64,000 nucleotides of DNA from the NCBI GenBank assembly GCA_002363545.1, contig DEWF01000005.1:44294-108293 (forward strand), written 5' to 3'. The first letter of the stretch is position 1, and each line of letters opens with the position of its first letter. This DNA comes from Christensenella sp. UBA3217 (GTDB lineage Bacteria > Bacillota > Clostridia > Christensenellales > CAG-1252). The notes under the pieces were generated by a model. The model ran no database searches, was not told the DNA's origin, and was given only the letters and a program-made list of their open reading frames with translations. Shown in pieces: positions 35,920 through 57,220 of the stretch. The position numbers were made by a program, and so were the translations under genes.

Positions 35920-35933
35920 TGGCGGAGAGATAG
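35920..35933. repeat. Left island junction: 14-bp direct repeat identical to the tRNA-Ser 3' end
   Basis: TGGCGGAGAGATAG is identical to 57131-57144. Confidence 0.8.
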
Positions 35934-37444: not shown

Positions 37445-37445
37445 A

Positions 37446-37766: not shown

Positions 37767-37787
37767 AATATGCCCCGAGAAAGAGTC

Positions 37788-37816
37788 TTGAATGAGATCG
37801 TTAACGGTGCTATAAT
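37788..37816 (+). promoter_or_regulatory. Internal promoter for the WYL regulator / GIY-YIG unit
   Basis: TTGAAT (37788-37793), 17 nt, TATAAT (37811-37816), followed by GGAAAGGAG and a GTG at 37887. Confidence 0.5.
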
Positions 37817-37886
37817 GAAGACACGATCACCCTCTTTTTTCGCGTATCGAGCCAAGCGACTTGCGAGAAGGGGAAAGGAGCGCGCT

Positions 37887-38861: not shown

Positions 38862-38862
38862 T

Positions 38863-39959: not shown

Positions 39960-40432
39960 AAAACGAAAACCACGCGATAGTCGCGTGGTTCAAAAGAGGT
40001 TAACCGATGAACAGAACGACCTCCTATTGTATAATGGTTTTGTGACCTGCCAGTTACAAAAGAAATACAATAGGAGGTTATTTATGAAAAGAGAGATATC
40101 TGCAGATAGTTTAGCACACACGAAGTGGGATTGCAAATACCAGGGGGAACTTGAAATTCGCATACCGAAACAGGGAATTTTGGTGCAAGGGGTATTACGT
40201 TGATACAGTAGGGAAGAACACGAAAGCGATAAAGGAATACATAGCACACCAACTGGAACAAGATAAGCAAAGTGACCAGTTAAGTATGTTTGATCCAAGG
40301 GACCCGTTGACGGGTAGCAAGTAACAGATGCATGACTGGCAGGTCAATACAAAAACGCATTTATGCGTAGCCAGTAAAGGATAGGGCTATGCCCGAAAAT
40401 GTAAAGCCCCCCGATTTTCGGGGGGATCTTTA
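39960..40432 (+). mobile_element. IS200/IS605-family remnant (terminal hairpins retained, transposase internally deleted)
   Basis: Left-end hairpins ACCACGCGA-tag-TCGCGTGGT and CCTCCTATTGTAT...ATACAATAGGAGG, the latter sequestering the RBS. Right-end hairpin CCCCCCGA-ttt-TCGGGGGG. Confidence 0.65.
40084..40323 (+). pseudogene. tnpA: IS200-type Y1 transposase (tnpA) pseudogene, internal deletion plus frameshift
   Basis: N-terminal MKREISADSLAHTKWDCKY is joined out of frame to the C-terminal GNLKFAYRNREFWCKGYYVDTVGKNTKAIKEYIAHQLEQD. The catalytic HUH/Tyr core is missing. Confidence 0.75.
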
Positions 40433-40435
40433 CTC

Positions 40436-40446
40436 CCTAATGGCGG
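40436..40446. repeat. Partial third copy of the junction (flank + first 6 nt of att core)
   Basis: CCTAATGGCGG is identical to 35915-35925. Confidence 0.5.
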
Positions 40447-40515
40447 CGTAACTGAATGTCAGTTTGAACTTTTTATTTTTAACCAAAGAATCGCTTTGTG
40501 CATAACGATTCAGCA

Positions 40516-41727
40516 TTAATTCAGTTTTAGATTCGTAAGTAATTCAACAAATCCCTTGTAATTATGGTGGAGATTTGTTGTTCCTATACTCTCCAATCGG
40601 TTATACTCCCTGATGGATGGGATTAACGCTGAAGGTGTTTTTATTCCGATATACCTTAACGCTTCGTTCATAATTAGATGGTTTAAGTAAATCGTTTCTT
40701 CGGCAGATATTTTTTGTATCTCGTATTCAAATAAATCGTCTTTATCTTTATATAACAGGATATCTGCTTCGGTTTTTATTTTGTCCATATTAACGTAAGT
40801 GTTTTTGGGTAAAGAGAAATGTTTCGTTAGAAACGGAGAGCAAATGGTGTCTTTATATTGATCTCGAATGGTTTTATTTGTGAAGTAATATTTCCATACC
40901 GGAGAAACAGACAAAATAGCAATATTTGACGAGATCGGGAACAGAATGTAATTATCAAAGTAACTTTTATCATTCTCTATTTCTCGTTTTGCTATTTCAT
41001 CAAAATTGTCTTTGCCAAAAAGAATCTTGCCAATTTCCTTTGCTTGGCGTATGTAACTTTCCTGTTCGCTTTTAGGAATTTTGACGGGAATTCGTTCGGT
41101 TGCATATCCTAGATCGTTAACGCAAAACTCGTTATCAGTATGTAAAAACATAAGAAAAGATGTATTGATTTCAATTGCGTGTTTTTTAATACCAACCATA
41201 TCCGAGGTAAGTAACGAGTCAAACGTGTTGTCGAGGATATAAAGCATTTCTCGTTTCCAAAAGTCTTCGCGACTTTCTCCCTCGTTGATATTAAATTGAC
41301 TTAATTCGAGCGCATTTTGCGGGACGTTCATGTAAGATCTTCGATTGTTTGGCGTTCTATATAGTTGTAAAAGAATATACTTTTTAATCGTTTCTAATTC
41401 ATAGCGTTTAAACGCATAATTGTTTTCCGAAACACATTTTGCCACTATTTTAGACATGGGCTGTTCAATCTTGATTGAAAATTTATGTTCAAGTTCCTTT
41501 ATGTCTTCTGATGAGGGAACGTCATATAGTTTGTTTTCTTGAAATGCCGACGACGTATCGAGATAAGCCGCATTAAAATTAATAAGATCCAAAACGCATA
41601 TTTTATAACACTTATTAGACGTTGGAATTGCAAAACGATTTAGTAATGCCTTTTGGATATAATGGTTTTTATCATAAGATGACATTGTAAGTTGCTCCTG
41701 CTTCTTTTGCAATAAGTATATATTCAT
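40516..41727 (-). CDS. DUF4238-like protein
   Basis: N-terminal KNHYIQKALLNRF resembles the H-[HY]-[VI]-P-Q-x-[YL]-L-x-x-F signature. Also ELEHKFSIKIEQ and LLQLYRTPNNRR blocks. An ATG at 41685 (MSSYDK) is an alternative start. Confidence 0.5.
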   Translation of the reverse strand: MNIYLLQKKQEQLTMSSYDKNHYIQKALLNRFAIPTSNKCYKICVLDLINFNAAYLDTSSAFQENKLYDVPSSEDIKELEHKFSIKIEQPMSKIVAKCVSENNYAFKRYELETIKKYILLQLYRTPNNRRSYMNVPQNALELSQFNINEGESREDFWKREMLYILDNTFDSLLTSDMVGIKKHAIEINTSFLMFLHTDNEFCVNDLGYATERIPVKIPKSEQESYIRQAKEIGKILFGKDNFDEIAKREIENDKSYFDNYILFPISSNIAILSVSPVWKYYFTNKTIRDQYKDTICSPFLTKHFSLPKNTYVNMDKIKTEADILLYKDKDDLFEYEIQKISAEETIYLNHLIMNEALRYIGIKTPSALIPSIREYNRLESIGTTNLHHNYKGFVELLTNLKLN

Positions 41728-41796: not shown

Positions 41797-41825
41797 TTGC
41801 GTTTTAAAGGAGATAATGTTATAAT
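41797..41825 (+). promoter_or_regulatory. Promoter of the ATPase/RM/Abi/helicase array
   Basis: TTGCGT, 17 nt, TATAAT. Small palindrome GGTAA-tg-TTACC at 41836-41847. AGGAG RBS before 41871. Confidence 0.5.
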
Positions 41826-41870: not shown

Positions 41871-43160
41871 ATGACAATAAAGCGAGATTTATATCTTGAC
41901 AAATTAAAGAATCATATGCATAACGGAATGATCAAGATCATTACCGGAATGCGCAGGTGCGGGAAAAGCGTTCTTTTATTCAATTTGTTTTATAACTATC
42001 TGATTGAGTCGGGCGTGAAAGAAGATCATATTATCGCCGTCAATCTCGAAGACGTCGGCAATCATGAGTTTAGAGACCCGCAAAAACTATACGATCATAT
42101 TTGTTCGCAAATCAAGACGAACGAGCAGTATTACGTTTTTCTTGATGAAGTTCAATACGCTATTTCCAAAGGCGATGCGCAAAGCGACGAACCGTTACCG
42201 CTTTATGGCGTTTTGAACGGCTTATTACACAAGATGAACGTGGACGTATACGTGACGGGAAGTAATTCTCGATTCCTTTCATCCGATATAAGAACGGAGT
42301 TTCGAGGTAGGGGAGATGAAATACACGTTCAACCGCTCTCTTTTGCGGAGTTTATGTCGGTTTACGATGGAGACAAATACGACGGCTTGCGCGACTATAT
42401 GGCTTACGGCGGCTTACCGCAGATTGCTTTTATGAAAACGCACGAGCAGAAGGCGGCGTATTTGACAAACCTGTTTGACGAGACTTATATAAAAGATGTC
42501 GTGGACAGGTACGGTATCCGGCGGAATGCGGCGGAGTTTGGCGAATTGGTGGATATCCTTTCGTCTGCCATCGGTTCCCTTAGCAATCCTACGAAACTCA
42601 GCAACACGTTCAAAAGCGTCAAAAACAAAACGGTCGCACAGCTTACGATAGCAAGGTATATTTCGTATCTCGAAGACTCTTTTTTGATCGACGAAGCCGT
42701 TCAATACGACGTAAAAGGAAAGAAGTATATTAACAGTCCGAAAAAATACTACTTTACGGATCTGGGACTTCGTAACGCAAGACTCAATTTCCGTCAACTT
42801 GAAGAAACCCATTCTATGGAAAACGTTATTTATAACGAGTTGAAATTGCGCGGGTATTCCGTAGATGTCGGCGTGATCGAAAAACGCGAAAAGAGCGAAG
42901 ACGGCAAAAGCCTGCGCAAGCGTTACGAAATTGATTTTGTTGCCAATCAAGGCTATAAGCGCTACTATATCCAGTCTGCACTCGCTATGCCAACCTTGGA
43001 AAAGGAGCAGCAAGAACAGCGCTCTTTGATGGGCGTCAACGACTCTTTCAAAAAGATCATCATTGTAGGCGGTTCGACTATGACGCATTATAATGAAAGC
43101 GGTATTTTGATCATGGGAATCCATGATTTCTTGTTGAAGAAAGACAGTTTGGATTTTTAA
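41871..43160 (+). CDS. AAA_14 + DUF4143-type ATPase (COG1373-like)
   Basis: Walker A GMRRCGKS, Walker B YVFLDEVQY, VYVTGSNSRFL, GRGDEIHVQPLSFAEF. Confidence 0.8.
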   Translation: MTIKRDLYLDKLKNHMHNGMIKIITGMRRCGKSVLLFNLFYNYLIESGVKEDHIIAVNLEDVGNHEFRDPQKLYDHICSQIKTNEQYYVFLDEVQYAISKGDAQSDEPLPLYGVLNGLLHKMNVDVYVTGSNSRFLSSDIRTEFRGRGDEIHVQPLSFAEFMSVYDGDKYDGLRDYMAYGGLPQIAFMKTHEQKAAYLTNLFDETYIKDVVDRYGIRRNAAEFGELVDILSSAIGSLSNPTKLSNTFKSVKNKTVAQLTIARYISYLEDSFLIDEAVQYDVKGKKYINSPKKYYFTDLGLRNARLNFRQLEETHSMENVIYNELKLRGYSVDVGVIEKREKSEDGKSLRKRYEIDFVANQGYKRYYIQSALAMPTLEKEQQEQRSLMGVNDSFKKIIIVGGSTMTHYNESGILIMGIHDFLLKKDSLDF

Positions 43161-43191
43161 TATTTGTATTTGTCGGAGCGAGGTTATTTCA

Positions 43192-45735
43192 ATGTCAGCT
43201 AAAGAAGCAAAAGCAAGAATAAAAATAAATAAAATGCTGGAATCGGCAGGTTGGCGTTTCTTCGATAGTGAAGAAGGTCCAGCTAACATTCAGGTGGAAG
43301 CCAACGTCAAAATTTCCCAAAAGCAATTTGATGATTTTGGCGAAAACTTTGAGAAAACTAGAAACGGCTTTATCGATTTTCTCCTTCTTGACGATAAGGG
43401 GAAACCGTTCATCGTATTAGAAGCGAAGTCGGAAGAAAAAGATCCTCTTGTCGGGAAAGAACAAGCCCGCGCATATGCTAAAAGCAACTGCGTGAAATAT
43501 GTGATTTTATCAAACGGAAATATCCATTATTTTTGGAATATTTACAAAGGAAATCCGCAGATCATTTTATCTTTTCCTTCATATGAGAGTGTTCAGGAGA
43601 GCAAAGCGTTAAATTCCGATCCTGCCAGGATTTATAATGAGGAAGTAAATTCTGATTATATTTCAGTTGTCAAGGAGCCGCGATATGCGGAAGCGCCGGA
43701 ATATCAGAATCAGGAAACAAGAGCGCAGTTTTTAAGGGATCGCGGACTGAGAATGATGCGCCAATATCAAGTGAATGCGATCAAGGCACTTCAAAAATCC
43801 GTTAAAGAAGGAAATCAACGATTCTTGTTTGAAATGGCGACCGGCACGGGCAAAACCCTAACTGCCGCGGCGGTCATTCGACTATTCCTTCGTAGCGGCA
43901 ACGCAAATAGAGTTTTGTTTTTGGTGGATCGTATCGAGCTTGAAAATCAAGCTAAGAAGAACTTCATCAATTACTTAAAGCCTGATTATCAAACGGTTGT
44001 TTTCAAAGAACACACCGACGATTGGCGTAAGGCGGATATTGTTGTTTCTACAGTGCAAACGCTTGCGTTTAACAATAAGTATAAAAGCGTGTTCAAACCG
44101 ACGGATTTTTCGTTGATAATTGCTGATGAAAGTCACCGTTCCATCAGTGGAAACAGTCGAGCAGTGTTTGAATACTTTATCGGTTACAAACTCGGTTTGA
44201 CGGCGACTCCAAAAGACTATTTGAAAAACGTGGACGCGGATGACCTTTCGTCAAGCGATCCCCGAGCATGGGAGCGCAGGCAACTTTTGGATACATATCG
44301 CACCTTCGGTTGCGAAAGCGGAGAACCGACATTCAGGTATTCGTTGATCGACGGTGTTAACGATCCGGACGGACCGTTCTTGGTCAATCCCACGATTGTG
44401 GATGCGCGTACCGATATAACGACGCAACTTCTTGCAGACGAAGGCTATGCCGTACTGCAGAAAGAAGACGAAGAAGATGAAGATGCGGAAGAAACTTTCT
44501 TTGCTCGCGACTTTGAAAGAAAATTCTTTTCGGACGAAACTAACAAGATGTTTGTAAAAACGTTTATGGATAATGCGCTTCGCGATCCTATTTCCGGAGA
44601 GATCGGCAAGGGCATCGTTTTCTGCGTCAGCAGAAAGCACGCCGCGAAAATTACACAACTTTTGAATGTTTACGCAGACAAAATGTTTCCTGGAAAGTAC
44701 TGTTCTGATTTTGCCATGCAGATAACATCAGACGTACAAAACGCGCAGGAATACACGATCAGTTTCCAAAACAACAATTTGAGCGGAACGAGCGGATTCC
44801 TTGAAGGATATAAATCTTCCAAGACGCGTATTTGCGTGACCGTAGGAATGATGACGACTGGGTATGACTGCGAAGATTTGTTAAATATCGGTTTGTTCCG
44901 TCCGATATTCTCTCCAACTGACTTTATTCAGATCAAAGGGCGCGGTACGCGCACGTTTACCTTCAATTACAAAACGCGGCAGAACGGAGAATGGCATGAG
45001 GAAAAAGTTGCCAAAAGCACTTTCAAACTCTTCGATTTCTTCGGAAATTGTGAGTTTTTTGAAGATAAATTCAATTACGATGAGATTATAAAACTCCCAC
45101 GGATAGCTGCAAAAACCGGAAATGACGGCGGTGAAGGAAGAGCCGTATCTATCGACACGTTTGAAAGCTTTGCGCCCGATCCGCTCAAATCGATCAAGGA
45201 AACGCAAGTCGGTTTGCAAGGGATGAAAATCGATCGAATGTTCTTTGAAAAATTCGAAGAGGTCGTCAAGAAGGACGAAACCGCCAAGGCTTCTTTCGAG
45301 GCGGGCGATTATGCGGGGACGCAACGCTATATCGAAGATAAATATATCGATAAACCGACGGAGTTCTTTACTTGGGAAAAACTCCGTAGGGCATCAGGCG
45401 TCGATCGCAGAGTAACCGTCAGAGAAATATTGGATAAAGTTTTCGGCTTGATTTCAAAGTTCAAAAGTAAGAAAGAACTGGTGGGCGATGAGTTCGACGG
45501 CTATTTGTTGACCTGCGGCGTGCCTGCCGGAGACTTTTATGAGGTCAGACATTTCTTCGAAACCTATTTGACGGATAAAGAAGTCCGTCGAGCGATCGAA
45601 GATAAGAAGTTCCAACTGCTCGGCACCCAAATCCCGAGTTATACGATGGCGGATCTGAGACGTCTCGGCAAAAAGAATATGCAAAGTGTTATCGGATATG
45701 TAAACGATAACGTAAATTTATCTAAATTCATGTGA
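43192..45735 (+). CDS. hsdR: Type I restriction enzyme R subunit-like (COG4096-type): PD-(D/E)xK nuclease + SF2 translocase
   Basis: HSDR_N-like AKARIKINKMLESAGW. Nuclease motif IDFLLLDD..FIVLEAKS. Motif I MATGTGKT, motif II IIADESHRS, motif VI IKGRGTR. Confidence 0.8.
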   Translation: MSAKEAKARIKINKMLESAGWRFFDSEEGPANIQVEANVKISQKQFDDFGENFEKTRNGFIDFLLLDDKGKPFIVLEAKSEEKDPLVGKEQARAYAKSNCVKYVILSNGNIHYFWNIYKGNPQIILSFPSYESVQESKALNSDPARIYNEEVNSDYISVVKEPRYAEAPEYQNQETRAQFLRDRGLRMMRQYQVNAIKALQKSVKEGNQRFLFEMATGTGKTLTAAAVIRLFLRSGNANRVLFLVDRIELENQAKKNFINYLKPDYQTVVFKEHTDDWRKADIVVSTVQTLAFNNKYKSVFKPTDFSLIIADESHRSISGNSRAVFEYFIGYKLGLTATPKDYLKNVDADDLSSSDPRAWERRQLLDTYRTFGCESGEPTFRYSLIDGVNDPDGPFLVNPTIVDARTDITTQLLADEGYAVLQKEDEEDEDAEETFFARDFERKFFSDETNKMFVKTFMDNALRDPISGEIGKGIVFCVSRKHAAKITQLLNVYADKMFPGKYCSDFAMQITSDVQNAQEYTISFQNNNLSGTSGFLEGYKSSKTRICVTVGMMTTGYDCEDLLNIGLFRPIFSPTDFIQIKGRGTRTFTFNYKTRQNGEWHEEKVAKSTFKLFDFFGNCEFFEDKFNYDEIIKLPRIAAKTGNDGGEGRAVSIDTFESFAPDPLKSIKETQVGLQGMKIDRMFFEKFEEVVKKDETAKASFEAGDYAGTQRYIEDKYIDKPTEFFTWEKLRRASGVDRRVTVREILDKVFGLISKFKSKKELVGDEFDGYLLTCGVPAGDFYEVRHFFETYLTDKEVRRAIEDKKFQLLGTQIPSYTMADLRRLGKKNMQSVIGYVNDNVNLSKFM

Positions 45736-45744
45736 GGAAAGTGT

Positions 45745-48219
45745 ATGCTGAACTTTGATGTCAAAAGAAAAATAAATACGTTGCGTGATATATTGGTGGG
45801 CAAAGTCCCCGATCCGAAGGCGCAGGTCGAACAGATCACCATAGCCTTGATCTATAAGTTTATGGACGATATGGATCTTCAAGGGAAAGACTTTGGAGCG
45901 GAAAGAGTGTTTTTCAAAGGTGATTTTGAAAAGTATGCTTTTTCTCAAATCATGCTTGCGGAGCATAGCGCGCAAGAACGTCTAAATCTGTATGCGGAAG
46001 GAATGGACAAAATGACAACCAATCCCGATCTTCCTCAACTTTTCCGCGACATTTTGCGCAATACCTATATCCCCTATCGCGATCCTGAAACGTTGAACCG
46101 CTTTTTGAAAGAAATCAATGAGTTTTCTTATGAAGACAGCGAAGAACTCGGCAATGCGTTTGAGTATTTGCTCTCTATTATGGGCAGTCAAGGCGACGCA
46201 GGCCAATTCCGTACCCCTCGCCATATCATCGATATGATGGTGGAGATTGTTGCGCCGACGAAGAACGAAACCATTCTCGACCCCGCTTGCGGAACCGCAG
46301 GATTCTTAATCAGCGCATACAACTATATCAAGAAGAGCAATCTTGACGAGAAAAACAACTCCAAACTATCGGCGGACGATAAAAACCGTATGACGGAGAA
46401 TTTTGCCGGATACGATATTTCGCCCGATATGGTCAGGCTTTCCCGCGTGAATATGTATTTGCACGGTTTTACCAAGCCAAACATCAGCGAATACGACACG
46501 TTGACCAGTTTGGATAGGTGGGATGATAACTACGATGTGGTTTTGGCAAATCCGCCGTTTATGACGCCGAAGGGCGGCATCGTTCCGCACAATCGTTACC
46601 GCGTTTCCGCCAAGCGAGCGGAAGTGCTGTTCGTGGATTATATTGCCGAGCACTTGAATCCCGCGGGCAGGGCGGCGATCATTGTCCCGGAGGGTATTGT
46701 TTTTCAATCGCAAACGGCATATAAAGAATTACGTAAATTCCTTGTTGAAGACGGTTATTTGTATGGCGTTATTTCTCTCCCTGCCGGTGTGTTCAATCCG
46801 TATAGCGGCGTTAAAACGAGCGTTCTTTTGCTCGACCGTGCTTTGGCGAGAAAAACGGATAGTATCCTTTTTGTAAAACTGAATAACGACGGCTTCGATC
46901 TCGGCGCGCAACGTCGTGAGATCAAGGGAAGCGAGATCCCCGACGTTATCAATATTTTCAAAGATTATCAAAAGGGAATTGAAGTTGACGGCAGACAAAA
47001 CGTAGTTCTTGCAAAGAAAAGTGATATAACTAAGCAGGACTATATTCTTGTTGGGGATAGATATCAACTTGCAGATGTTTATCAATCGAAATGGCCTACT
47101 GTAAAACTCAGCGAACTCAGTGAAATAATAACAAAAGGGACAACGCCAACGACACTAGGTTTTAATTATACAGATGGCGGAATTCGATTTATAAAAATAG
47201 AGAATATCTCTTTAAATAATGAATTGCTGAATAACGAATATGCGTTCATATCTGAAGAATGCAATAAAGCATTATATAGGAGTGTATTGCGAGAAGATGA
47301 CATCCTTTTTTCTATTGCAGGAGCATTAGGACGATGTGCAATAGTCAAAAAAGAATACTTGCCTGCCAATACCAACCAAGCCCTCGCAATAATAAGGCTA
47401 AAGGATAAAAGAGTGGTAAAATATGTTAAGATGATTTTATCGTCTTCCGCAATTAAAGATCAGATTACTTCCCTAAAAACTGGTGTCGCACAGTATAATT
47501 TGTCGTTAAAACAAATCGGAGATATTACAATACCTCTTCCGCCTTTATCCGTGCAGGAAGAAATTGTCGCCGAGATAGAATCGTATCAAAAAATTATCGA
47601 CGGTGCCCGTCAAGTTGTAGAAAACTATAAGCCGACTATCAAGATTGATCCGACGTGGAAGATCGTTCCGCTTGGTCAAGTATGCGTTACATCGTCTGGT
47701 GGTACTCCCAAAAGCACAAATCGTGAGTATTATGAAAATGGCACTATCAATTGGTTGAAAAGTGGTGAGGTTGCTAATGGGTACATTTATTCTACTGAAC
47801 AAAAGATAACAGAGAAAGCGTTAGAGGAATCTTCTGCAAAAGTTTTTCCCGCAGAAACAGTTGTAATAGCGATGTATGGCGCAACAGCGGGGCAAGTTGG
47901 CATCTTAAAAATTGCCAGTGCCACAAACCAAGCGGTTTGTGGAATACTGCCGAATAAAGTTTTTGAATCCGAATTTCTATATTTATACATGTTATCAAAA
48001 CACGATTATTTTATCAAACAGTCAACAGGTGGAGCTCAACCAAACATTTCTCAAATGCTGATAAGAAAAACCGGAGTGCCGTTAGTTGATTTGGAAGAAC
48101 AAAAGAAAGTAGTCGCACGAATTCATCTCGAAATGAATATTGTTGAGCAAAATAAAAACTTAATTAAAATCTTTGAGCAAAAGATCAAAGAAAAAATCTC
48201 TGAGGTTTGGGGAGAGTAA
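45745..48219 (+). CDS. hsdM: Fused type I methyltransferase-specificity polypeptide (HsdM N-half, two-TRD HsdS C-half)
   Basis: GQFRTPRHI, motif I LDPACGTAGFL, motif IV VLANPPF. Two TRD starts follow (WPTVKLSELSEIITKGTTP and WKIVPLGQVCVTSSGGTPK), each followed by a conserved helical spacer. Confidence 0.8.
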   Translation: MLNFDVKRKINTLRDILVGKVPDPKAQVEQITIALIYKFMDDMDLQGKDFGAERVFFKGDFEKYAFSQIMLAEHSAQERLNLYAEGMDKMTTNPDLPQLFRDILRNTYIPYRDPETLNRFLKEINEFSYEDSEELGNAFEYLLSIMGSQGDAGQFRTPRHIIDMMVEIVAPTKNETILDPACGTAGFLISAYNYIKKSNLDEKNNSKLSADDKNRMTENFAGYDISPDMVRLSRVNMYLHGFTKPNISEYDTLTSLDRWDDNYDVVLANPPFMTPKGGIVPHNRYRVSAKRAEVLFVDYIAEHLNPAGRAAIIVPEGIVFQSQTAYKELRKFLVEDGYLYGVISLPAGVFNPYSGVKTSVLLLDRALARKTDSILFVKLNNDGFDLGAQRREIKGSEIPDVINIFKDYQKGIEVDGRQNVVLAKKSDITKQDYILVGDRYQLADVYQSKWPTVKLSELSEIITKGTTPTTLGFNYTDGGIRFIKIENISLNNELLNNEYAFISEECNKALYRSVLREDDILFSIAGALGRCAIVKKEYLPANTNQALAIIRLKDKRVVKYVKMILSSSAIKDQITSLKTGVAQYNLSLKQIGDITIPLPPLSVQEEIVAEIESYQKIIDGARQVVENYKPTIKIDPTWKIVPLGQVCVTSSGGTPKSTNREYYENGTINWLKSGEVANGYIYSTEQKITEKALEESSAKVFPAETVVIAMYGATAGQVGILKIASATNQAVCGILPNKVFESEFLYLYMLSKHDYFIKQSTGGAQPNISQMLIRKTGVPLVDLEEQKKVVARIHLEMNIVEQNKNLIKIFEQKIKEKISEVWGE

Positions 48220-48221
48220 GT

Positions 48222-49226
48222 ATGAATAGCGCACGAATAAAAGAATGCACAGAATTGTCATCGGAAATCCTAAAAAACTTTGAGTTGTCTGAAGTTCCTG
48301 TTAGCAATATTATTTTGAAAAGCTTGCGTCTTTGTAGGTTACTTGGCGATGAAGACGGAATTTTGCTTTTTACCTATGAGTCTTCCGGCTATCCCAGTGG
48401 AGCAAATGGTATGTCTGCGGATTCTTGGAGAATAGCCAAAATGGCAGGGAGGAGATATTTTTCAAAAGAAAAGGATAAAAATGGCAAAGAGAAAAATGTT
48501 GAGTACGCAAAAACTCAATTAATAGCAGAACTTGAAGAATTTATTGAATCGCAAAAAATAAGTTTGTCGTCTTCTAATGATCCAAACGTATCTATTTCAT
48601 CTGCAAATCCAAGTCAATTTGTTCATACCCCGCAAGGGAACGCTAGTGTAAGAAGGTCTATCGTATTATCTATTACAGAATCGCAAAAATGGCTTCAAAA
48701 GATTAAAGGATGTTTATATAATTACATCTTGCAAATATACAATAAACTTTCTTATGGAAATATTATAGAAGATACATTCACAAAATCGCGATTGATGACA
48801 AACGATAAATTGGCAACTATGTGCCCTCAAGCAATTAATAAATTTGTTTCAGTATATGAAAACATGGATTCTGATAATTCTGAGGACTGGGCAAATGCAG
48901 TGCATTCTTGCCGCCGTATTTTGGTTGATTTGGCAGACTCACTATATCCGCCACAAGACGAGCCTATCGTTGTTGAAGGGAAAAAGATAAAAATTGGGAA
49001 AGATCAATATATTAATCGACTAATGCAGTTTATATCTGAGAAATCTTCAAGTAAAACATATAAGGATATTGTAGGCTCGGATTTGTCATTCATTGGCAAT
49101 AGACTTGATGCGATAAATGATGCAGTTTGTAAAGGGACACATTCGAATTTAACGAAAGATGAAGCGTCGAGATATATCCTGCATACTTATTTGTTAATTA
49201 GCGATATTATCGCATTGATAGAGTAA
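48222..49226 (+). CDS. AbiTii-like N-terminal domain protein (334 aa)
   Basis: VSNIILKSLRLCRLLGDEDGILLFTYESSGYP resembles the AbiTii N-domain pattern (LRK..lA..L......W...ELnGY). C-terminal helical module ends KGTHSNLTKDEASRYILHTYLLISDI. The ATG lies 2 nt after the hsdMS stop. Confidence 0.5.
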   Translation: MNSARIKECTELSSEILKNFELSEVPVSNIILKSLRLCRLLGDEDGILLFTYESSGYPSGANGMSADSWRIAKMAGRRYFSKEKDKNGKEKNVEYAKTQLIAELEEFIESQKISLSSSNDPNVSISSANPSQFVHTPQGNASVRRSIVLSITESQKWLQKIKGCLYNYILQIYNKLSYGNIIEDTFTKSRLMTNDKLATMCPQAINKFVSVYENMDSDNSEDWANAVHSCRRILVDLADSLYPPQDEPIVVEGKKIKIGKDQYINRLMQFISEKSSSKTYKDIVGSDLSFIGNRLDAINDAVCKGTHSNLTKDEASRYILHTYLLISDIIALIE

Positions 49227-49238
49227 AGAGGCATACTT

Positions 49239-50372
49239 ATGAAAAGTGATGGACATACCACTATAAATGCGAAAGCGGAAGAGCCTCTGGATTTTTCGGT
49301 TGCACTCGATAAAATTCTTGAGTACTTACCTCAAGAGTATTCGGATAAAACAGAAAAGCAATATATTGATGCTCTTATCCTTGCGACTCGTACTAGTTAT
49401 GAAAATGGGCTATATCAATTTGCATATATCCAGTACCATATGCTTTTTATGACTGCCGTGTATTATGCTCTTTTGCAAATTTCTTTCGTGCATAAAAAAG
49501 AACTTGAAAAAGGGCTATATTATTTATTAAAAGATAGGTATTCGGAGTTTTGGAAGGAAAGTAACACAAAAAAAGGGGAACTCTATTTCGGCAGTTTTGC
49601 CATAATAAACGAAAGCGACGTTTTTATGTTGCTTCGAGTGGTAGGATTAGAGAACGATTTTTTGGGTGAATTGAAGGATTTGGTTAAGCAACGAAATAAT
49701 TATGCTCACGCAAATGGGCAACTCTTGCTGACATCCGATGATCTATTTCTTGATGCCATAAGTAACTATAATGAAAAAGCAGAAAAAGTAATAAATTTTT
49801 TAAAAACAGATTTAATTGCTTTTTACAAGAAAAGTATAGGTGAAAAAGACTTCTACGATCCTGAAATACGTGCTTGTTCAGATGCGGACGAACAAATGGA
49901 ACAAGAGTTTATTAAAAAGTATTCTCTTTCTCAAACAGAATTAAACTGGTTGCGAAAAATTCAATTGTCTGAGTTTGATGATATGAATGGTGCAGAAGAG
50001 ATAAAGACACTTCATTGTGCATTGATTCATTATTATATCGAATTGACACGAGACGATTATATACCGATTGCAGATACTTATATTCAAAATAAATACCATG
50101 AAAATGCGGTGGGTTTTATAGAAAATGAGATGGGTATTAGCGCCTATGAATGCGGCAAATATGGGGCTGAATTCCCGTTGTATGAATGCCCTGAATGTGG
50201 AGAAGAGCAACTCGTTTTTGACCAAGAAAACGGTAAATATCATTGTTTTGCATGTGATGAAGATTTTACTACTGAAGATTTAGCGCGTTGTGACCGTTGT
50301 GGGTGTTTGATGAAACGAGATGACGATTGGCAGCTTTGTGGAAATTGCACAGAAGAGATAAAGAGAGATTAA
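49239..50372 (+). CDS. HEPN-like protein with C-terminal double zinc ribbon
   Basis: LVKQRNNYAHANG fits the HEPN R-x4-H (RN..AH) RNase motif. C-terminus has CPECGEE..HCFACDED and CDRCGC..LCGNC. Confidence 0.55.
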   Translation: MKSDGHTTINAKAEEPLDFSVALDKILEYLPQEYSDKTEKQYIDALILATRTSYENGLYQFAYIQYHMLFMTAVYYALLQISFVHKKELEKGLYYLLKDRYSEFWKESNTKKGELYFGSFAIINESDVFMLLRVVGLENDFLGELKDLVKQRNNYAHANGQLLLTSDDLFLDAISNYNEKAEKVINFLKTDLIAFYKKSIGEKDFYDPEIRACSDADEQMEQEFIKKYSLSQTELNWLRKIQLSEFDDMNGAEEIKTLHCALIHYYIELTRDDYIPIADTYIQNKYHENAVGFIENEMGISAYECGKYGAEFPLYECPECGEEQLVFDQENGKYHCFACDEDFTTEDLARCDRCGCLMKRDDDWQLCGNCTEEIKRD

Positions 50373-50386
50373 GAGTGGATATACAA

Positions 50387-53122
50387 ATGAACGAGTTTGA
50401 TCAAAACATTATTACCGTAAGCGACAATATCTGCAAAAATATTGCATCCATCCCTGATGGAGAGCGTGGTTTTGTATCGCAAAACATATTAAGCAATTTG
50501 CGAAATCTTGTTGAAGCTGTAGACCAGCGCATTTTTAGTGATATAGAACCTATTGAATTAAATTGCTATAACGATATCGAAAAAGCGATAAAATATGTTG
50601 CATCTCGTGGGAATTTGAGATTTTTAAGCAAGTTTCATGATTTTTTGCAGGCTTCAGTTTCGCATTATACACCGGATGAGGATAGTTCTATACGGTTGAT
50701 GTTGAAGTATTATGAATGGTTGCTCAAGATTCGTGATTACTGCAAGACGGTTTTCTCTTTAGATATTTTGGGCAACTTAGAGGACTACCCATTACAACAA
50801 GACGAATCGTTAAAAGAGTATTATGACAAAATTGCTTGTAAGTTGGAAACCGCAAGATACTATAATAGCCAGCCTAATAACAGATTTTATATTGAAAAAA
50901 ACAAGCCGTTTTTTGTTGACGGGAAAACATATTATCAATTAACGGTAACACCTGCCGATGATTTTTCGAGCAAATTTGATAGGATAATTGTTTTTTCTGA
51001 TCGTGATATCCCTTCATATTACGCCATCAAACTTGATTTTATAGACAGTTCTATCGACATTATCGATAGAGTAATGCCTATAAAAATCGTTAATAATTAT
51101 ACCGTTGCAATTCGCCCTGTTGAATTTGAAGATATAGCGTCGATTTTAGGCGTAAATAAAGTCAATGTCGGCACAAAAGAAAACAGGTTTATGATGGATT
51201 ATTTGACCAAGACTGGTGCGAATCTTACTGAGATTATCAATTATGAACAAAAATATTATGATCAACTTAAAAATGAACTAATTAGCAGATGCGAGTCAAA
51301 TAATTTTTTCATAATGCTTGATAAATGCAGAGCTTTATCGAAAAATAAAAGTTCAGGGCACAATATAATTCGTTATTTGCTATTGCGCTTGCGACACGGT
51401 GTTATGAAGGCACAAATTCAATCAACTGAAAACAATTGGTTATCTAATTTGTGCTTATTAAATGAGAGTATTCCTTTTGATAAAATGCCTTTTGACGCAT
51501 CTCTTCATAATCACAATCCATCTCTATTTGATATTTTTTCAAGCATAAATATTAAAGGGCACGAAGAGGAACTGCTTTCAAGGAAAGTGCGCACCAATAC
51601 CGAACAAAAAGTTCAATTATTTACACCAATAGAAGATGTAAAAAAATATGGTGATGTAGAGGAATTGGCAAATAGGTTTAACTCACGTCTTATCCCCAAG
51701 CACAAACCCGTTAGAAGTTTGATAATCGAACACGGACAAATCCATATAAAAGGTTATGTGGATGACACTATTTGGATAATTAATAATCTTATTAGCAGAC
51801 AAGAGAGCGGATTAGCCGGGTACAAAAATTCGATGATATCTTGGGTAAATACAAATCCTGCGGTAGATTCGGAAGAAAAAAAGAAGATTTTACCTAATAT
51901 TTTTGATAGTTCCAATTTAGCGTTGATTTATGGCGCAGCAGGAACCGGCAAAACAACACTAATTAAACATTTGGCAGATTACTTTTCAAATGAAAGTAAA
52001 CTGTTCTTGGCGAATACAAATCCAGCGAAGGAACATCTTCGCAGAGAAATAAAAACAAAAAATAGCGAATTCAGTACCATAGCAGGAAGCAAACAGTATT
52101 TGAAATACTCTTATGATGTAGTTTTTATTGACGAATGTAGTACTGTGGACAATTTATCAATGAAAAAACTGTTACAGCAATTATCATGTAAATTATTAGT
52201 GCTTGTAGGAGATGTGTTTCAGATACAATCCATATCATTTGGTAATTGGTTTGGTCTTGCTCGTTATTTCTTGCCTAAAAGCATAATTTTTGAGCTGACT
52301 ACACCTTACAGGGGGCAACAAAATAATAATCTTATTGGTTTATGGAATCGCGTACGAGAACTTGATCCGCAAATTGCAGAATATATCTATAGAAACAAAT
52401 ATTCTGCAACTTTAGATGATGGGACTATTTTTGCAAACGATTTAACTGATAGAATTATTTTATGCTTGAATTACGACGGCTTATATGGAATTAATAATAT
52501 AAATCGATTTTTACAAAACGATAATCCTAATCCTCCAATCACATGGGACTCATGGATATACAAAGTCAATGATCCGGTTTTATTTAATGAACATAATCGC
52601 TTTTATCCCACTCTTTACAATAATTTAAAAGGTTGGATTCGTGATATCAAAAAGGATGATTATTCTATAACTTTTACTGTGGAAATAGATATGCCGATCA
52701 ATGGATTCGGAGCGTCTGAAGCAGGTTTTGAGTTGTTGGAGTGTGATGTGTCTGGGCATTCAATTATTAGGTTTACCGTGGGCAAATATGTTGATGACGA
52801 TAGTAGAGAAAGAAAACAAGAACAAGTGGTTCCTTTTCAAGTTGCTTATGCAGTATCAATACATAAAGCACAAGGACTTGAATACGATTCCGTGAAAATC
52901 GTTGTAACAAATGAGATAGAAGAGTTAATCTCTCACAATATTTTTTATACGGCAATTACTCGCGCAAAGAGAAAACTGAAAATATATTGGCAACCTGAAA
53001 CGCAACAGAAAATATTGTCTACCATAGAACCAATTTCCAACAAAAAAGATGCCTATATTATTGAAGCGAAATATGGGTTGAAGATATTGAATATGGTAAA
53101 ACAAGTAAAAAGGACGATTTAA
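50387..53122 (+). CDS. RecD/Dda-like SF1 helicase with ~530-aa uncharacterised N-terminal region
   Basis: Walker A YGAAGTGKTT, Walker B VVFIDECS, LVLVGDVFQ, AVSIHKAQGLEYDSV, FYTAITRAKRKLKIY. The ATG at 50387 follows the upstream stop by 14 nt. Confidence 0.8.
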   Translation: MNEFDQNIITVSDNICKNIASIPDGERGFVSQNILSNLRNLVEAVDQRIFSDIEPIELNCYNDIEKAIKYVASRGNLRFLSKFHDFLQASVSHYTPDEDSSIRLMLKYYEWLLKIRDYCKTVFSLDILGNLEDYPLQQDESLKEYYDKIACKLETARYYNSQPNNRFYIEKNKPFFVDGKTYYQLTVTPADDFSSKFDRIIVFSDRDIPSYYAIKLDFIDSSIDIIDRVMPIKIVNNYTVAIRPVEFEDIASILGVNKVNVGTKENRFMMDYLTKTGANLTEIINYEQKYYDQLKNELISRCESNNFFIMLDKCRALSKNKSSGHNIIRYLLLRLRHGVMKAQIQSTENNWLSNLCLLNESIPFDKMPFDASLHNHNPSLFDIFSSINIKGHEEELLSRKVRTNTEQKVQLFTPIEDVKKYGDVEELANRFNSRLIPKHKPVRSLIIEHGQIHIKGYVDDTIWIINNLISRQESGLAGYKNSMISWVNTNPAVDSEEKKKILPNIFDSSNLALIYGAAGTGKTTLIKHLADYFSNESKLFLANTNPAKEHLRREIKTKNSEFSTIAGSKQYLKYSYDVVFIDECSTVDNLSMKKLLQQLSCKLLVLVGDVFQIQSISFGNWFGLARYFLPKSIIFELTTPYRGQQNNNLIGLWNRVRELDPQIAEYIYRNKYSATLDDGTIFANDLTDRIILCLNYDGLYGINNINRFLQNDNPNPPITWDSWIYKVNDPVLFNEHNRFYPTLYNNLKGWIRDIKKDDYSITFTVEIDMPINGFGASEAGFELLECDVSGHSIIRFTVGKYVDDDSRERKQEQVVPFQVAYAVSIHKAQGLEYDSVKIVVTNEIEELISHNIFYTAITRAKRKLKIYWQPETQQKILSTIEPISNKKDAYIIEAKYGLKILNMVKQVKRTI

Positions 53123-54168
53123 TGACAGCGCAAATGAATAAAACACAAAAATATTATATTGCATATATGGATATCTTGGGATATAAGGAGTATTTGAAAA
53201 ATAATCCTGACAAAGCTCAAGAGTATTTGAATACAATTCTTGATGCTGTTGAAAGAGCAAAAATAAGTGTGTCAAATTTTGAGAGTAAAACTATGCCCAT
53301 GTATCAAATGGATGGCGGACTTCGGTTAAAGATTTTTTCGGACAATATTTTGCTTTGTATGCCGGTTGGTAATGGTAAAGATGAAATTCGCCGTGCCATT
53401 GTTTTCTTGATTGCAGTGGCTTCTATTCAAAGAGGAATGGTATTGCAACATGGCTTGATTACACGTGGCGGTATTATTTTTGGTGAACTTTTTATAAATG
53501 AAGATATAGTTTTTGGGCAAGGACTAATCGACGCGGTTTCTTTGGAGGCTAAAGCAGAATATCCGTGTATAATAGTATCTGATGAGTTGCCTAAAAAGTT
53601 ACATAGCCTGTTGAGTGATGTAACAGAACAATACAACAAAATAAGAACCCTTATCCAAAATCAAGAACAACACGTCGATTTTAGTTCTGAAGAAAAGAAG
53701 TATTTGGATGATAATTTGGTAAATGTTGCCAAACAGGTTTATTATTATCGCTCTTTGCAAGAATTGATGTTACATTTTGATAAAGAACCAATTTTTCTTA
53801 ATTATTTATTTGACTTATCGTTTACCAATCTTTTTGGAATTGTGTTTGAAAACTATGTTGCTCAAATTGCAAAAAATGAACCCAAAAAGTTTAAAGATTT
53901 GATCGGGACAAACGAAGATTATGCCTCTATATTATTAGCACATAAAGACATTGTAATAAACAAAGCGGTGACGTATTGCCATTATTGTGATATTGATAAG
54001 TCGAATGCTTTGTTAATAGCGGCAAGGGAGAAAGTAATTCGCAAATACATTTGGATGCTTAGGTTCCATATACATATGTGTGAGCGACTAAATTTTAAGC
54101 AAGGCATGTTTGCGTTTCGATTTGGTTGCGATCTAGATGTGTTGCGTCAAATTGTTGAAATTATATAG
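53122..54168 (+). CDS. Nucleotide-cyclase/GGDEF-like palm-domain protein with unknown helical C-domain
   Basis: Ordered motifs YIAYMDILGY, LKIFSDNILL, TRGGIIFGE and FGQGLIDAVSLEAKA resemble class III cyclase metal-Asp and R-x-G..G..N.A.R.E blocks. The start overlaps the helicase stop (TAATG). Confidence 0.5.
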   Translation: MTAQMNKTQKYYIAYMDILGYKEYLKNNPDKAQEYLNTILDAVERAKISVSNFESKTMPMYQMDGGLRLKIFSDNILLCMPVGNGKDEIRRAIVFLIAVASIQRGMVLQHGLITRGGIIFGELFINEDIVFGQGLIDAVSLEAKAEYPCIIVSDELPKKLHSLLSDVTEQYNKIRTLIQNQEQHVDFSSEEKKYLDDNLVNVAKQVYYYRSLQELMLHFDKEPIFLNYLFDLSFTNLFGIVFENYVAQIAKNEPKKFKDLIGTNEDYASILLAHKDIVINKAVTYCHYCDIDKSNALLIAAREKVIRKYIWMLRFHIHMCERLNFKQGMFAFRFGCDLDVLRQIVEII

Positions 54169-54174
54169 TATTAA

Positions 54175-54191
54175 AATCGGGTTTCCCGATT
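54175..54191 (+). terminator. Weak hairpin terminator ending the array
   Basis: AATCGGG-ttt-CCCGATT, followed only by a short T-poor tail. Confidence 0.35.
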
Positions 54192-54340: not shown

Positions 54341-54369
54341 TTTACAAAGGCATTTGAAAGTGATATAAT
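54341..54369 (+). promoter_or_regulatory. Promoter of a non-coding transcript
   Basis: TTTACA (54341-54346), 17 nt, TATAAT (54364-54369). No ORF follows. Confidence 0.5.
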
Positions 54370-54373
54370 ATAG

Positions 54374-54601
54374 CTACAAACTGAATACGGGTGACAGGTA
54401 AAATACCATTGTTTGCCGCGAACGTTCGTTAAGCGATTATACTTGGCAGAAGCCGTATTGACTTAAACCGCATAAAAACCCAACAGCGGGCGGAGAGAAC
54501 AGTACGAAACCGCGAACCACGAGACTTCGGGCGAACAGATAGACCTTATTTTTGCGTTGCAGAAACGCGCGTAAGGTTTTGTCTGTTCGCCCTTTGTTTT
54601 T
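54374..54601 (+). ncRNA. Candidate ~230-nt structured RNA of unknown function
   Basis: Bounded by the promoter above and a long terminator hairpin. Internal pairings include AATACGG/CCGTATT and the palindrome CGAACGTTCG. No coding potential in any + frame. Confidence 0.4.
54529..54601 (+). terminator. Long-stem intrinsic terminator
   Basis: GGGCGAACAGA..CCTTA..GCG / CGC..TAAGG..TCTGTTCGCCC, followed by TTTGTTTTT. Confidence 0.7.
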
Positions 54602-54785
54602 AACGGGCATTCGGTTTGAATACAACCACAAGGAGGAATGTGTATGAATGCAAGAGATCGACCACACATCTGACAACCACGAGCGGAAGAAAGTCATTGA
54701 AAGTATTGGGAATCCGTTCCAAAATGGAAGCAGGTAAAGGATTTTCCCAAAATCAATGATTTTCGTTAATCCGACTCGTGGACAA

Positions 54786-55266: not shown

Positions 55267-55610
55267 CCTCTTCGGGAGCGAAGAACAGACACTTGACCTA
55301 CGTAGGGAAAAGGATTACGCGAAAGGAGCATTGGCGTAATGGACTCCCTTTAATTTCTTGTGAGAGTGAGGGCAAAAAAATACACCGGATACCCTCACCG
55401 TCCAAAAGGAATGAATAATAAAACACCAAGTAAAGAACGTTGTCACCGTGGATTTAACAAGCGGTGCAAGCAGTAAAACCCCTTGCGACCTGTCGCAAGA
55501 ACAAATCAACAAAAGCGCAAACATATTGGCAAACGTATTGATAGACTTTGTTAAGAACGGCGGAAGCCTTAAAGATCTTACGCCACAACACGTATTCGGG
55601 AGGAAAGGCA

Positions 55611-57152
55611 ATGAATAGAGCGGTCATCTATGCAAGATTCAGTTCTCACAGTCAAACGGAACAGTCCATCGAAGGACAACTTCGCGAGTGCTATGAATAT
55701 GCCAAACGGCAAAACATCGTGATCGTGGGCGAATATATAGACAGAGCCTTGACGGGAACGATGGACAAGCGTCCCAACTTCTTAAAGATGATCGAAGACA
55801 GCAAGAAAAAGACCTTCGACTTCGTTCTCGTCTATCAGTTGGATCGCTTCGCTCGTAACCGATATGACAGCGCAAACTACAAAGCAAAACTCAAAAAGAA
55901 CGGCGTGCGTGTTCTTTCCGCCAAGGAGAATATCAGCAACGACGCAAGCGGTATCCTGATTGAGGGCGTACTGGAAAGTATGGCGGAGTACTACTCCGCC
56001 GAGCTTTCCCAAAAGGTAAAACGCGGTATTAGAGAAAGCTTGACTAAAGGATATTTCATCGGTGGGTACGGACTGTTCGGCTATGACGTCATGGACAAAA
56101 GATGGGTCGTAAACTCTTTTGAAGCGGACGTCGTTCGGGACGTGTTCAATCGTTACAAGAACGGTGAAAAGTTGAACGACATAATCAATAGACTCAATCG
56201 TGATGGTATTAAAACGAAAGCGGGTTCGGCTTTCAATATGAACAGTGTTGCCCGCATGATCCGCAACGAGAAGTATATCGGTCTTGTCCGTTCTAACGGC
56301 AATGTCTATACCAACGTTGTTCCCGCCATCGTGGACGAAAGTCTATTCCGAGAGTGTAACGAAATGATGGACGAACACAAGCACAAACAGCGTGAGTGTA
56401 AAGCGGAGAAGCCGTATATATTGAGCGGTAAACTGTTCTGCGGCTACTGTGGCAGCATGATGACGGCGGAAGCCGGCACAAGCAAAACGGGGAAAGTTCA
56501 CCACTATTACAAGTGCTTCAATCGCAAGAAGAATCCGTCCGCCTGTGGCAAGAAAAGTTACAAGCAAAAGGACTTAGAAGATCTCGTTTTCGACACGACG
56601 GTGGACTATATCTTAAAGCCGAAGGTCATCGACCAAATCGCGCAGATCGTGGTGGAACGCTTCAATGCGGAGATAACCAAATCTGCGAACATTGCCAATC
56701 TCGAAAACGAGCTAAAATCTAAAGAAAAAGCGATAAACGGCTTGCTCACCGCAATGGAACAAGGCGTCGTCACGAAAACGACCAAAGACAGAATGCTCGC
56801 ATTGGAAGCGCAAAAGGAAGAGTTGGAAAGCAAGATCGCATTGGAAAAGGCAAGGCAAATCGAGCCGTTATCTTACGAAACGGTACGCGCTTTCCTGACC
56901 TATTTCGCACGGAAAAAGTACGAAAGCGACGAAGTCAAAAACGAATTCTTTAATTCGTTCATCAATCGTGTTATTCTGTACGACGATAGAGTGCTTATCT
57001 TCTACAACACCGATCCGAACAGTCCGACGACCATCGACACAGCCGAAAACAAAACCATTTGCGATCAATTCAACCAAAACAACGCAAAAGAAAACTCGCT
57101 TGAACCTTCGGGGTTCAAACGAGTTTCACTTGGCGGAGAGATAGGGATTTGA
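55611..57152 (+). CDS. Large serine recombinase (integrase)
   Basis: Resolvase domain AVIYARFSSHSQ (catalytic Ser), VLVYQLDRFARN. Recombinase domain. Zinc ribbon CGYCGSMM...HHYYKC. Coiled-coil C-terminus. GGGAGGAAAGG RBS before 55611. Confidence 0.9.
   Translation: MNRAVIYARFSSHSQTEQSIEGQLRECYEYAKRQNIVIVGEYIDRALTGTMDKRPNFLKMIEDSKKKTFDFVLVYQLDRFARNRYDSANYKAKLKKNGVRVLSAKENISNDASGILIEGVLESMAEYYSAELSQKVKRGIRESLTKGYFIGGYGLFGYDVMDKRWVVNSFEADVVRDVFNRYKNGEKLNDIINRLNRDGIKTKAGSAFNMNSVARMIRNEKYIGLVRSNGNVYTNVVPAIVDESLFRECNEMMDEHKHKQRECKAEKPYILSGKLFCGYCGSMMTAEAGTSKTGKVHHYYKCFNRKKNPSACGKKSYKQKDLEDLVFDTTVDYILKPKVIDQIAQIVVERFNAEITKSANIANLENELKSKEKAINGLLTAMEQGVVTKTTKDRMLALEAQKEELESKIALEKARQIEPLSYETVRAFLTYFARKKYESDEVKNEFFNSFINRVILYDDRVLIFYNTDPNSPTTIDTAENKTICDQFNQNNAKENSLEPSGFKRVSLGGEIGI
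57131..57144. repeat. Right island junction: 14-bp direct repeat (last 14 nt of tRNA-Ser)
   Basis: TGGCGGAGAGATAG is identical to 35920-35933. Confidence 0.8.
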
Positions 57153-57220
57153 ACCCTAGGTACCGGTGAAGGTACGCATGATTTCGAATCATGTGCATTC
57201 GACCTCTCTGCCATCTCTCC
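57131..57220 (-). tRNA. tRNA-Ser (anticodon CGA), CCA encoded
   Basis: Reverse complement GGAGAGATGGCAGAGAGGTCGAATGCACATGATTCGAAATCATGCGTACCTTCACCGGTACCTAGGGTTCAAATCCCTATCTCTCCGCCA. It has a 7-bp acceptor stem, anticodon stem CATGA/TCATG with loop TTCGAAA, a long variable arm GTACC/GGTAC, and a T-arm TAGGG-TTCAAAT-CCCTA. Confidence 0.92.

Follow-up and report, generated by a model that had tools for sequence, protein, structure and literature searches.

The window analysed here is a 64-kb stretch of contig DEWF01000005.1 from Christensenella sp. UBA3217 (positions are counted from its first nucleotide). It contains an array of seven genes, g1 to g7, which encode an ATPase (g1), the HsdR subunit (g2) and a fused HsdM-HsdS protein (g3) of a Type I restriction-modification (RM) enzyme, an AbiTii-type protein (g4), a HEPN-like zinc-ribbon protein (g5), a helicase (g6), and a cyclase-fold protein (g7). 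We conclude that this array is an RM operon that was used as an insertion site for defence genes and is not a seven-part machine. The block is probably a composite defence cassette, in which independently mobile defence genes have accumulated on a conserved core formed by hsdR, hsdMS, and g5. Type I RM enzymes methylate host DNA and cut unmethylated incoming DNA.

The original prediction, made from the nucleotide sequence, had read the array as a super-operon of coupled immunity and had taken conserved linkage beyond hsdR-hsdMS as the test of that idea. Such linkage was found for g5 and, at the level of its family, for g7. What stands of the prediction is an RM enzyme with one or more dedicated downstream effectors; g1, g4, and g6 lack this linkage, and their relatives stand alone.

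The restriction core and its constant partner g5

The product of g2 combines the PD-(D/E)xK nuclease domain and the superfamily 2 (SF2) translocase of a Type I R subunit, with matches to Pfam HSDR_N_2, HSDR_N, ResIII, and SWI2_SNF2 and to PADLOC REase_I, and with D..EAK and DESH motifs seen in its translation. The g3 product supplies an N6-adenine methyltransferase in residues 1-445 (motifs DPACGTAGF and NPPF; N6_Mtase E = 1e-54) and a specificity unit with two target-recognition domains in residues ~446-824 (two Methylase_S stretches). The HsdR nuclease-motor, the N6-adenine methyltransferase, the two target-recognition domains, the conserved spacers, and domain swapping are all shared with the classical Type I enzymes EcoAI and EcoKI. 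Unlike these enzymes, in which separate HsdM and HsdS polypeptides form R2M2S, M and S are fused in g3 (one 824-aa polypeptide) and in all relatives. Moreover, HsdR lies outside the NCBIfam equivalog for the EcoAI/FtnUII (Type IB) HsdR, scoring 210.8 bits against a cut-off of 550 with the N-terminal 340 residues aligned.

DNA homology between the window and all relatives with the core triad starts at 43174-43201, at the hsdR start, and covers hsdR, the M part, the conserved S spacer, and the S C terminus; it then skips g4, resumes in g5, and ends at the g5 stop codon. The nearest RM relative (locus L012) encodes an HsdR that is 93% identical to g2 and an M part ~95% identical to that of g3, with swapped target-recognition domains and a conserved spacer and C terminus. 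These swapped domains, together with the mosaic structure of g5 and the other cargo of L012, show apparent cassette exchange by recombination within the operon. The G+C content at third codon positions (GC3) is 0.47-0.52 for g1, g2, and the M part of g3 (0.52 for both g1 and the M part) and 0.29-0.32 from the S part of g3 through g7, with a sharp drop from 0.52 to 0.32 at ~47080. Because this break falls exactly at the M/S junction within hsdMS, the array is a mosaic.

For g5, homologues of 35-65% identity were compared, and contigs were picked by length only for inspection of context. In 8/8 independent contexts g5 was found only downstream of an HsdR (~845 aa) and an HsdMS fusion, which is the embedding in, and conservation with, a Type I RM operon that is expected of a PrrC-like guardian. 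Writing R and MS for these two genes and a prime for a relative, the gene orders are HTH-R-MS-g5'-237aa-g7' (L012), GmrSD-R-MS-239aa-g5'-HamA-HamB, which ends in Hachiman (L022), DUF5655-R-MS-g5'-PDC-S51 (L024-29), AAA_14-R-MS-g5'-SIR2 (L030-33), HTH-R-MS-g5'-HEPN_LA2681 (L114), and lysS followed by a stand-alone R-MS-g5' and then a 640-nt gap (L115-118). The series extends to a Paracoccus plasmid (Alphaproteobacteria), where a helicase and an 858-aa methyltransferase are followed, with a 4-nt overlap, by a 246-aa g5-like protein that is 30% identical to g5 and keeps the N-terminal domain, with the zinc ribbons absent. Start and stop codons also overlap by 4 nt upstream of g5 relatives in several loci. 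An R152-N-N-Y-A-H157 (R152-N-x3-H157) motif is invariant in 28 aligned sequences of the g5 family, and Pfam gave sub-threshold matches to HEPN_RiboL-PSP for 18/28 members and to HEPN_MAE_28990 for 10/28, with none reaching the gathering score. When PDB sequences were searched with a g5 profile, the zinc ribbon and nothing else was matched, and a scan of viral contigs with the g5 alignment found no relatives.

The g5 protein is itself a mosaic when compared with that of L012: residues 291-377, the zinc-ribbon tail (window 50114-50372 and L012:9009-9266), are 71% identical, and residues 1-290 are 24% identical. The 71% identity of this end in a locus where R and M are 93-95% identical suggests that it was inherited together with the RM enzyme. 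The idea that the zinc ribbon is a universal RM-docking module was downgraded, since the Paracoccus homologue is without zinc ribbons.

The theme of an RM operon with an embedded abortive-infection gene is already known, with PrrC as its model. In the PrrC/EcoprrI system, a Type IC RM complex silences an anticodon nuclease until a phage anti-restriction factor releases it, and this scheme of an RM enzyme that restrains an effector has already been generalised to HEPN-RM pairs (PMC3710099; PMC12707154). Like PrrC, g5, here a HEPN-like protein, is encoded within a Type I RM operon as its constant companion, and by analogy it may follow the proposed logic in which RM forms the first line of defence and a latent RNase stands behind it (PMC3710099; PMC12707154). 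Unlike PrrC, which has an N-terminal ABC/Rad50-like ATPase domain, g5 has two zinc ribbons and no such domain, and its RM partner has fused M and S. On this analogy, g5 would most likely be an RNase kept latent through binding and silencing by the RM complex, and a phage that disables restriction would bring about its release. Anantharaman et al. (2013) linked at least 16 HEPN clades to RM operons and also catalogued the HEPN families MAE_28990 and RiboL-PSP; a triad in which HsdR and fused HsdMS are joined by a HEPN/zinc-ribbon protein is not described in the available portion of that catalogue (PMC3710099). Should the triad function in the proposed way, gut Clostridia would commonly carry a second RM guardian that differs in structure from the first.

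Related R and fused methylase genes also occur on E. coli plasmids. The IncF plasmid NZ_CP034592.1 (L128, 8987-16535) encodes an HsdR homologue 55% identical to g2 and a 677-aa fused methylase, followed by a Ppl-type defence ATPase, and 52 conjugative E. coli plasmids carry a set of this type between finO and repA.

Facultative genes and the cyclase-fold protein g7

Genes g1, g4, and g6 appear from these comparisons to be facultative additions and not parts of a conserved unit, because close relatives of these genes stand alone and the closest RM relatives are without them. All three are absent from L012. The original prediction had allowed that the leading ATPase might belong to the unit, which is contradicted by DNA homology with every relative starting at the hsdR start codon. 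Accordingly placed outside the homologous block, g1 matches PADLOC PDC-S01 (359 bits), and relatives of the array carry HTH, GmrSD, DUF5655, or housekeeping genes at its place. Upstream of the RM operons of L016 and L030 there are AAA_14 ATPases from other subfamilies, which is a hint at the family level only. The PADLOC models matched by g1 and g6 (PDC-S01 and PDC-S53) are single-gene candidates.

The AbiTii match of g4 (PADLOC, E = 3.5e-16) covers the N-terminal 176 aa only, and the C-terminal domain is possibly a c2405-type HEPN domain. Fusion of an AbiTii N-terminal domain to C-terminal HEPN domains is a described architecture (PMC3710099). The gene sits between hsdMS and g5, and in L022 a counterpart exists for its C-terminal half only. 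Two g4 relatives, 70% and 64% identical, stand alone, one beside a CBASS operon and one among housekeeping genes. The helicase g6 matches PADLOC PDC-S53 over positions 1-899 of the 900 in the model (1148 bits), and five full-length relatives that are 48-78% identical (L006-L010) have no RM gene, g5, or g7 nearby. In a rumen Clostridia metagenome-assembled genome, a PDC-S53 helicase with an in-frame internal deletion (residues ~160-640 missing) stands upstream of a g7 that is 95% identical to that of the window (L011:9941-12261). A distant locus, L056:47-7319, tightly packs HsdM, a g7-like 316-aa gene, HsdS, a 432-aa HSDR_N_2/DUF2971 protein, and a PDC-S53-like helicase (41% identical).

No model in Pfam, NCBIfam, or PADLOC matched g7 and its relatives; weak Guanylate_cyc matches occurred in 5/42 family members. 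An AlphaFold model of g7, built with an alignment of 42 homologues, had a mean predicted local distance difference test (pLDDT) score of 90.4. In Foldseek searches of PDB, its N-terminal ~160 residues matched class-III adenylyl and guanylyl cyclases (E = 4e-6, probability 1.0, TM-score ≤0.67 on the target), including the Pycsar uridylate cyclase 8jsz. The model has the cyclase-homology fold of class III nucleotidyl cyclases, and this predicted fold supports the earlier description of g7 as cyclase-like, a kinship that no hidden Markov model library detects. Residues D17, K70, F72-S-D-N75, R115-G116, E142, and P148 are invariant in 75 family members. Both metal-binding aspartates (D17 and D74) are thereby kept, from which we infer that g7 may have catalytic nucleotidyl-transfer or cyclase activity. 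Fold and aspartates are shared with Pycsar and other class-III cyclase defences; g7 differs from these apparently in its Asn/Arg positions, in the lack of a neighbouring cyclic-nucleotide-binding effector, and in having an RM system as its genomic partner.

This partnership extends through the g7 family. In L012 a g7 relative that is 61% identical follows R-MS-g5'-237aa without a helicase, in L014/15 a relative comes directly after an 835-aa N6 methylase, and in L016-21 it follows a Type III Mod-Res pair. A metagenome scan with g7 yielded 80 loci, in which the co-directional upstream neighbour was an HsdM-type methylase in 13/37 and the downstream one HsdS in 18/34. With iterative profiles, an RM gene directly adjoined the g7 relative in 27/60 evaluable loci and in 15 of the 26 with both flanks present; the usual orders are R-M-X-S and M-X-S-R, where X is the g7 relative. 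The family comprises 3387 clusters at 50% identity (E ≤ 1e-10), and a scan of viral contigs with the g7 alignment found no relatives. Because its family habitually travels with RM genes, g7 probably works together with RM systems or acts upon them, for instance through synthesis of a nucleotide signal. Catalytic activity in this family, if it exists, would connect classical restriction with nucleotide signalling, a link that has yet to be established.

The 1-nt overlap between g6 and g7 raised the possibility that they form an obligate pair. This was rejected, since g7 occurs in L012 where there is no helicase, and the helicase occurs in L006-L010 where there is no g7. Distant members of the g7 family (22-30% identical), annotated as hypothetical, occur on Bacillus cereus-group and Acinetobacter plasmids; Bacillus cereus plasmid CP003748.1 (L126, 105793-106608) and 34 other plasmids carry family members, and the one locus inspected is not RM-adjacent.

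Transcription of the array and competing explanations

The array consists of seven long open reading frames, all on the + strand of 41871-54168. Eight genes had been counted at first; the six junctions define seven, HsdM-S being one open reading frame. The junction lengths in that early account (+31, +9, +2, +12, +14, and -1 nt) were recovered exactly, and its domain calls held up, that for g7 through the predicted fold. A purine-rich ribosome-binding site precedes every start codon of g1 to g7. Gaps of ≤35 nt separate 16/29 co-directional neighbour pairs of the window, with a median gap of 16 nt. When the six junctions of the array itself are removed, 10/23 pairs have such gaps, and six consecutive tight junctions are a ~0.6% event. 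The spacing of the array is operon-like and not extraordinary. In defence islands, repeated insertion into an RM operon can produce tightly packed co-directional genes, so that close spacing by itself says little about functional coupling.

One transcription unit would be expected to have co-directional genes whose junctions cannot accommodate both a promoter and a terminator, as is the case here (all ≤31 nt). None of the six junctions formed a stable structure on folding, and read-through from the g1 promoter is plausible because the junctions are too short to hold terminator and promoter and do not fold stably. The -35 element of this candidate promoter matches 3/6 positions only, hence it was not listed by a consensus scan of 40.4-55.6 kb on both strands, which returned 61 promoter-like sites compared to 45.8 ± 6.6 in shuffles. 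The single recognisable promoter claimed earlier is indeed present, and it is not the sole candidate, as the scan placed ~25 further + strand matches inside the array. The array is without the ancestral hsdR promoter, since homology with the relatives does not extend upstream of the hsdR start codon. A candidate internal terminator at 43109-43128, inside g1, was rejected because its energy is unremarkable (z = -0.55).

The hairpin reported at the end of the array was confirmed as a 7-bp stem; it lacks a U-tract, and its folding energy is unremarkable (z = -1.1). It is exactly conserved in L011 and in L012/L013, though the g7 DNA of L012 is only 67% identical. The hairpin may be either a weak terminator or a cassette boundary, and its exact conservation would fit a functional end or boundary. 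Judged from the sequence, a single transcript for all seven genes is plausible.

We propose that the RM operon took up separately mobile genes, namely the PDC-S01 ATPase in front, the AbiTii gene between hsdMS and g5, and the PDC-S53 helicase after g5. Transcription of all seven genes would probably start at the promoter that precedes g1, since the insertions left no space in which new signals could lie, and co-transcription here would reflect assembly of the cassette and not a seven-part machine. In relatives, the slot after R-MS(-g5) is occupied by HEPN_LA2681 or by one of several single-gene defence systems, known or candidate, namely Ppl, PDC-S51, PDC-S53, SIR2, or Hachiman. As in other cases of RM-embedded defence genes (Ppl, SIR2, and Hachiman beside R-MS; TgvAB-type 'Type I-embedded' genes), independent genes lie co-directional and minimally spaced in or after a Type I operon; what sets the present array apart is that a single RM core has received four different additions.

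Several findings weigh against this reading or parts of it. The seven Clostridia contexts of g5 are 66-82% DNA-identical across R-MS-g5 and constitute one lineage, and the 55%-identical R and MS relatives on E. coli plasmids carry Ppl in place of g5, so that the presence of g5 does not extend to every member of the wider R+MS family. The name 'HEPN-like' for g5 comes from sub-threshold profile matches and the motif; a Foldseek search of PDB with its AlphaFold model (pLDDT 84.7) returned noise and no structural match, and no ATPase domain of the sort that regulates PrrC was found in g5 with Pfam, PADLOC, or NCBIfam. For g7, the canonical class-III Asn/Arg transition-state pair appears not to be conserved, the positions reading I/S in a manual alignment register, and no effector that binds cyclic nucleotides was seen near it in the window or in RM-embedded relatives. 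The combination of genes in L056 hints that the link of the helicase is perhaps not purely accidental, and the many promoter-like sites within the array may tell against a single transcript.

Diverged relatives bear on how far the array can be read as one integrated system, whose ATPase, AbiTii, HEPN, helicase, and cyclase-like effectors would all be under the control of RM activity. The uniformly tight junctions with their one 1-nt overlap would suit such a system, as would the AAA_14-type ATPases of three subfamilies that precede RM operons (in the window, L016, and L030) and the repetition of HsdM, a g7-like gene, HsdS, and the helicase in L056 at 37-41% identity. The same seven-gene array was also found again in several metagenomes, but with identical proteins, so these recurrences represent one element and are not independent; we used diverged relatives as the informative ones for linkage. 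Among these, L012 is without g1, g4, and g6 in spite of its 93% identical HsdR, and relatives of g4 and g6 occur in unrelated contexts. Together with the single-gene status of g1 and g6 in PADLOC and the sharp compositional break within g3, these results make an integrated seven-gene system highly improbable. The opposite extreme is that only hsdR and hsdMS are functionally linked, with g5, g7, and the rest being independent hitch-hikers for which RM operons are preferred landing sites. The highly variable slot downstream of R-MS with its stand-alone systems, the Ppl gene at the place of g5 in E. coli plasmid relatives, the lack of an adjacent RM gene in about half of the g7-family loci, and the RM-embedded independent systems already documented (PMC11411939, portion available) are consistent with this. 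However, g5 follows R-MS without exception, even in the stand-alone three-gene locus and on the alphaproteobacterial plasmid at 30% identity, the 4-nt start/stop overlaps recur in several loci, and the contrast between the zinc-ribbon end and the N-terminal part of g5 (71% versus 24%) suggests co-inheritance with the RM enzyme. We consider it unlikely that g5 and g7 are mere passengers.

The constancy of g5 could have another cause, if it were a structural or regulatory subunit of the R+MS enzyme, such as a zinc-ribbon DNA- or RNA-binding expression controller or an assembly factor, and not a toxin. Its invariable presence and translational coupling to hsdMS, its two zinc ribbons, and a HEPN fold without a supporting structural match would agree with such a role. 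The invariant R-N-x3-H motif argues otherwise, as do the Paracoccus homologue, which keeps the N-terminal domain and is without zinc ribbons, and the existence of related R+MS pairs without g5, and we judge a subunit role to be quite unlikely. Compared to the composite cassette that we favour, a bolder proposal is that two undescribed RM-coupled modules coexist in the array. In one, HsdR and fused HsdM-S would have a HEPN/zinc-ribbon protein as their guardian RNase, which would dock to the RM enzyme through its zinc-ribbon tail as adaptor; the other would be a large cyclase-fold family in Type I and Type III RM operons that reports on how the RM enzyme stands by means of a nucleotide signal. 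This is conceivable, though we hold it to be doubtful. The R-MS-HEPN/zinc-ribbon triad and the RM-embedded cyclase-fold family match no curated model, and the two gene partnerships appear to be undescribed. No description of PDC-S53, TrlF, fused HsdMS, or cyclase-in-hsd associations was found in the literature, the coverage of which was incomplete, so that this absence is weak evidence.

Carrier island and neighbouring genes

Table 1. Features of the array and of the island that carries it (positions in the 64-kb window).
Feature	Position	Strand	Description
g1	41871-43160	+	AAA_14/DUF4143 ATPase, PADLOC candidate PDC-S01
g2	43192-45735	+	HsdR-type restriction subunit: PD-(D/E)xK N-terminal domain and SF2 DExH motor, EcoAI-like
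g3	45745-48219	+	Fused HsdM-HsdS, 824 aa
g4	48222-49226	+	AbiTii N-terminal domain and uncharacterised helical C-terminal domain
g5	49239-50372	+	HEPN-like domain and two C-terminal CxxC zinc ribbons
g6	50387-53122	+	911-aa superfamily 1 (RecD/UvrD-like) helicase with long N-terminal region, PADLOC candidate PDC-S53
g7	53122-54168	+	348 aa; predicted N-terminal class-III nucleotidyl-cyclase fold (~residues 1-160) and helical C-terminal domain with conserved His/Cys
Candidate sigma-70 promoter	41797-41825	+	TTGCGT-17-TATAAT, TG at -15/-14; within 143-nt divergent intergenic region upstream of g1
Hairpin	54175-54191	+	7-bp stem AATCGGG-TTT-CCCGATT, directly 3' of g7 stop codon
Low-GC island, ~21 kb	35920-57220		GC falls from ~51% to 33-45% between ~36 and 57 kb
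Large serine recombinase	55548-57152		
tRNA-Ser gene	57131-57220	-	Overlaps end of large serine recombinase
14-nt direct repeats	35920-35933 and 57131-57144		TGGCGGAGAGATAG; the latter copy is the 3' 14 nt of the tRNA-Ser gene

Because the 3' 14 nt of the tRNA gene recur at 35920-35933, the array is cargo of a ~21-kb tRNA-integrated island (Table 1). A degenerate third copy of the repeat lies at 40436-40454, beside a strong hairpin at 40407-40425, which suggests that two islands were possibly inserted in tandem. An Rfam search of 36-58 kb found no RNA family besides the tRNA. The stretch that separates g7 from the recombinase module contains a candidate small non-coding RNA (54341-54605). A near-consensus promoter (TTTACA-17-TATAAT with TG) is followed by ~230 nt that fold at -72.9 kcal/mol (z = -3.9), and a terminator with a long stem and a U-run closes the candidate. 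The core of this RNA is ~95% identical to L012, although the adjoining g7 is only 67% identical, and it has no Rfam match.

The left part of the island contains a second tight co-directional defence cluster (36173-39888; junctions of 1, 3, and -20 nt), which encodes an FtsH/IteA-like AAA ATPase-peptidase, a 106-aa open reading frame, a WYL-domain protein, and a UzuA homologue (PADLOC E = 5e-32). Divergent from g1, a low-GC open reading frame of 403 aa on the - strand (40516-41727) has no Pfam, NCBIfam, or PADLOC match and may be an uncharacterised defence gene.

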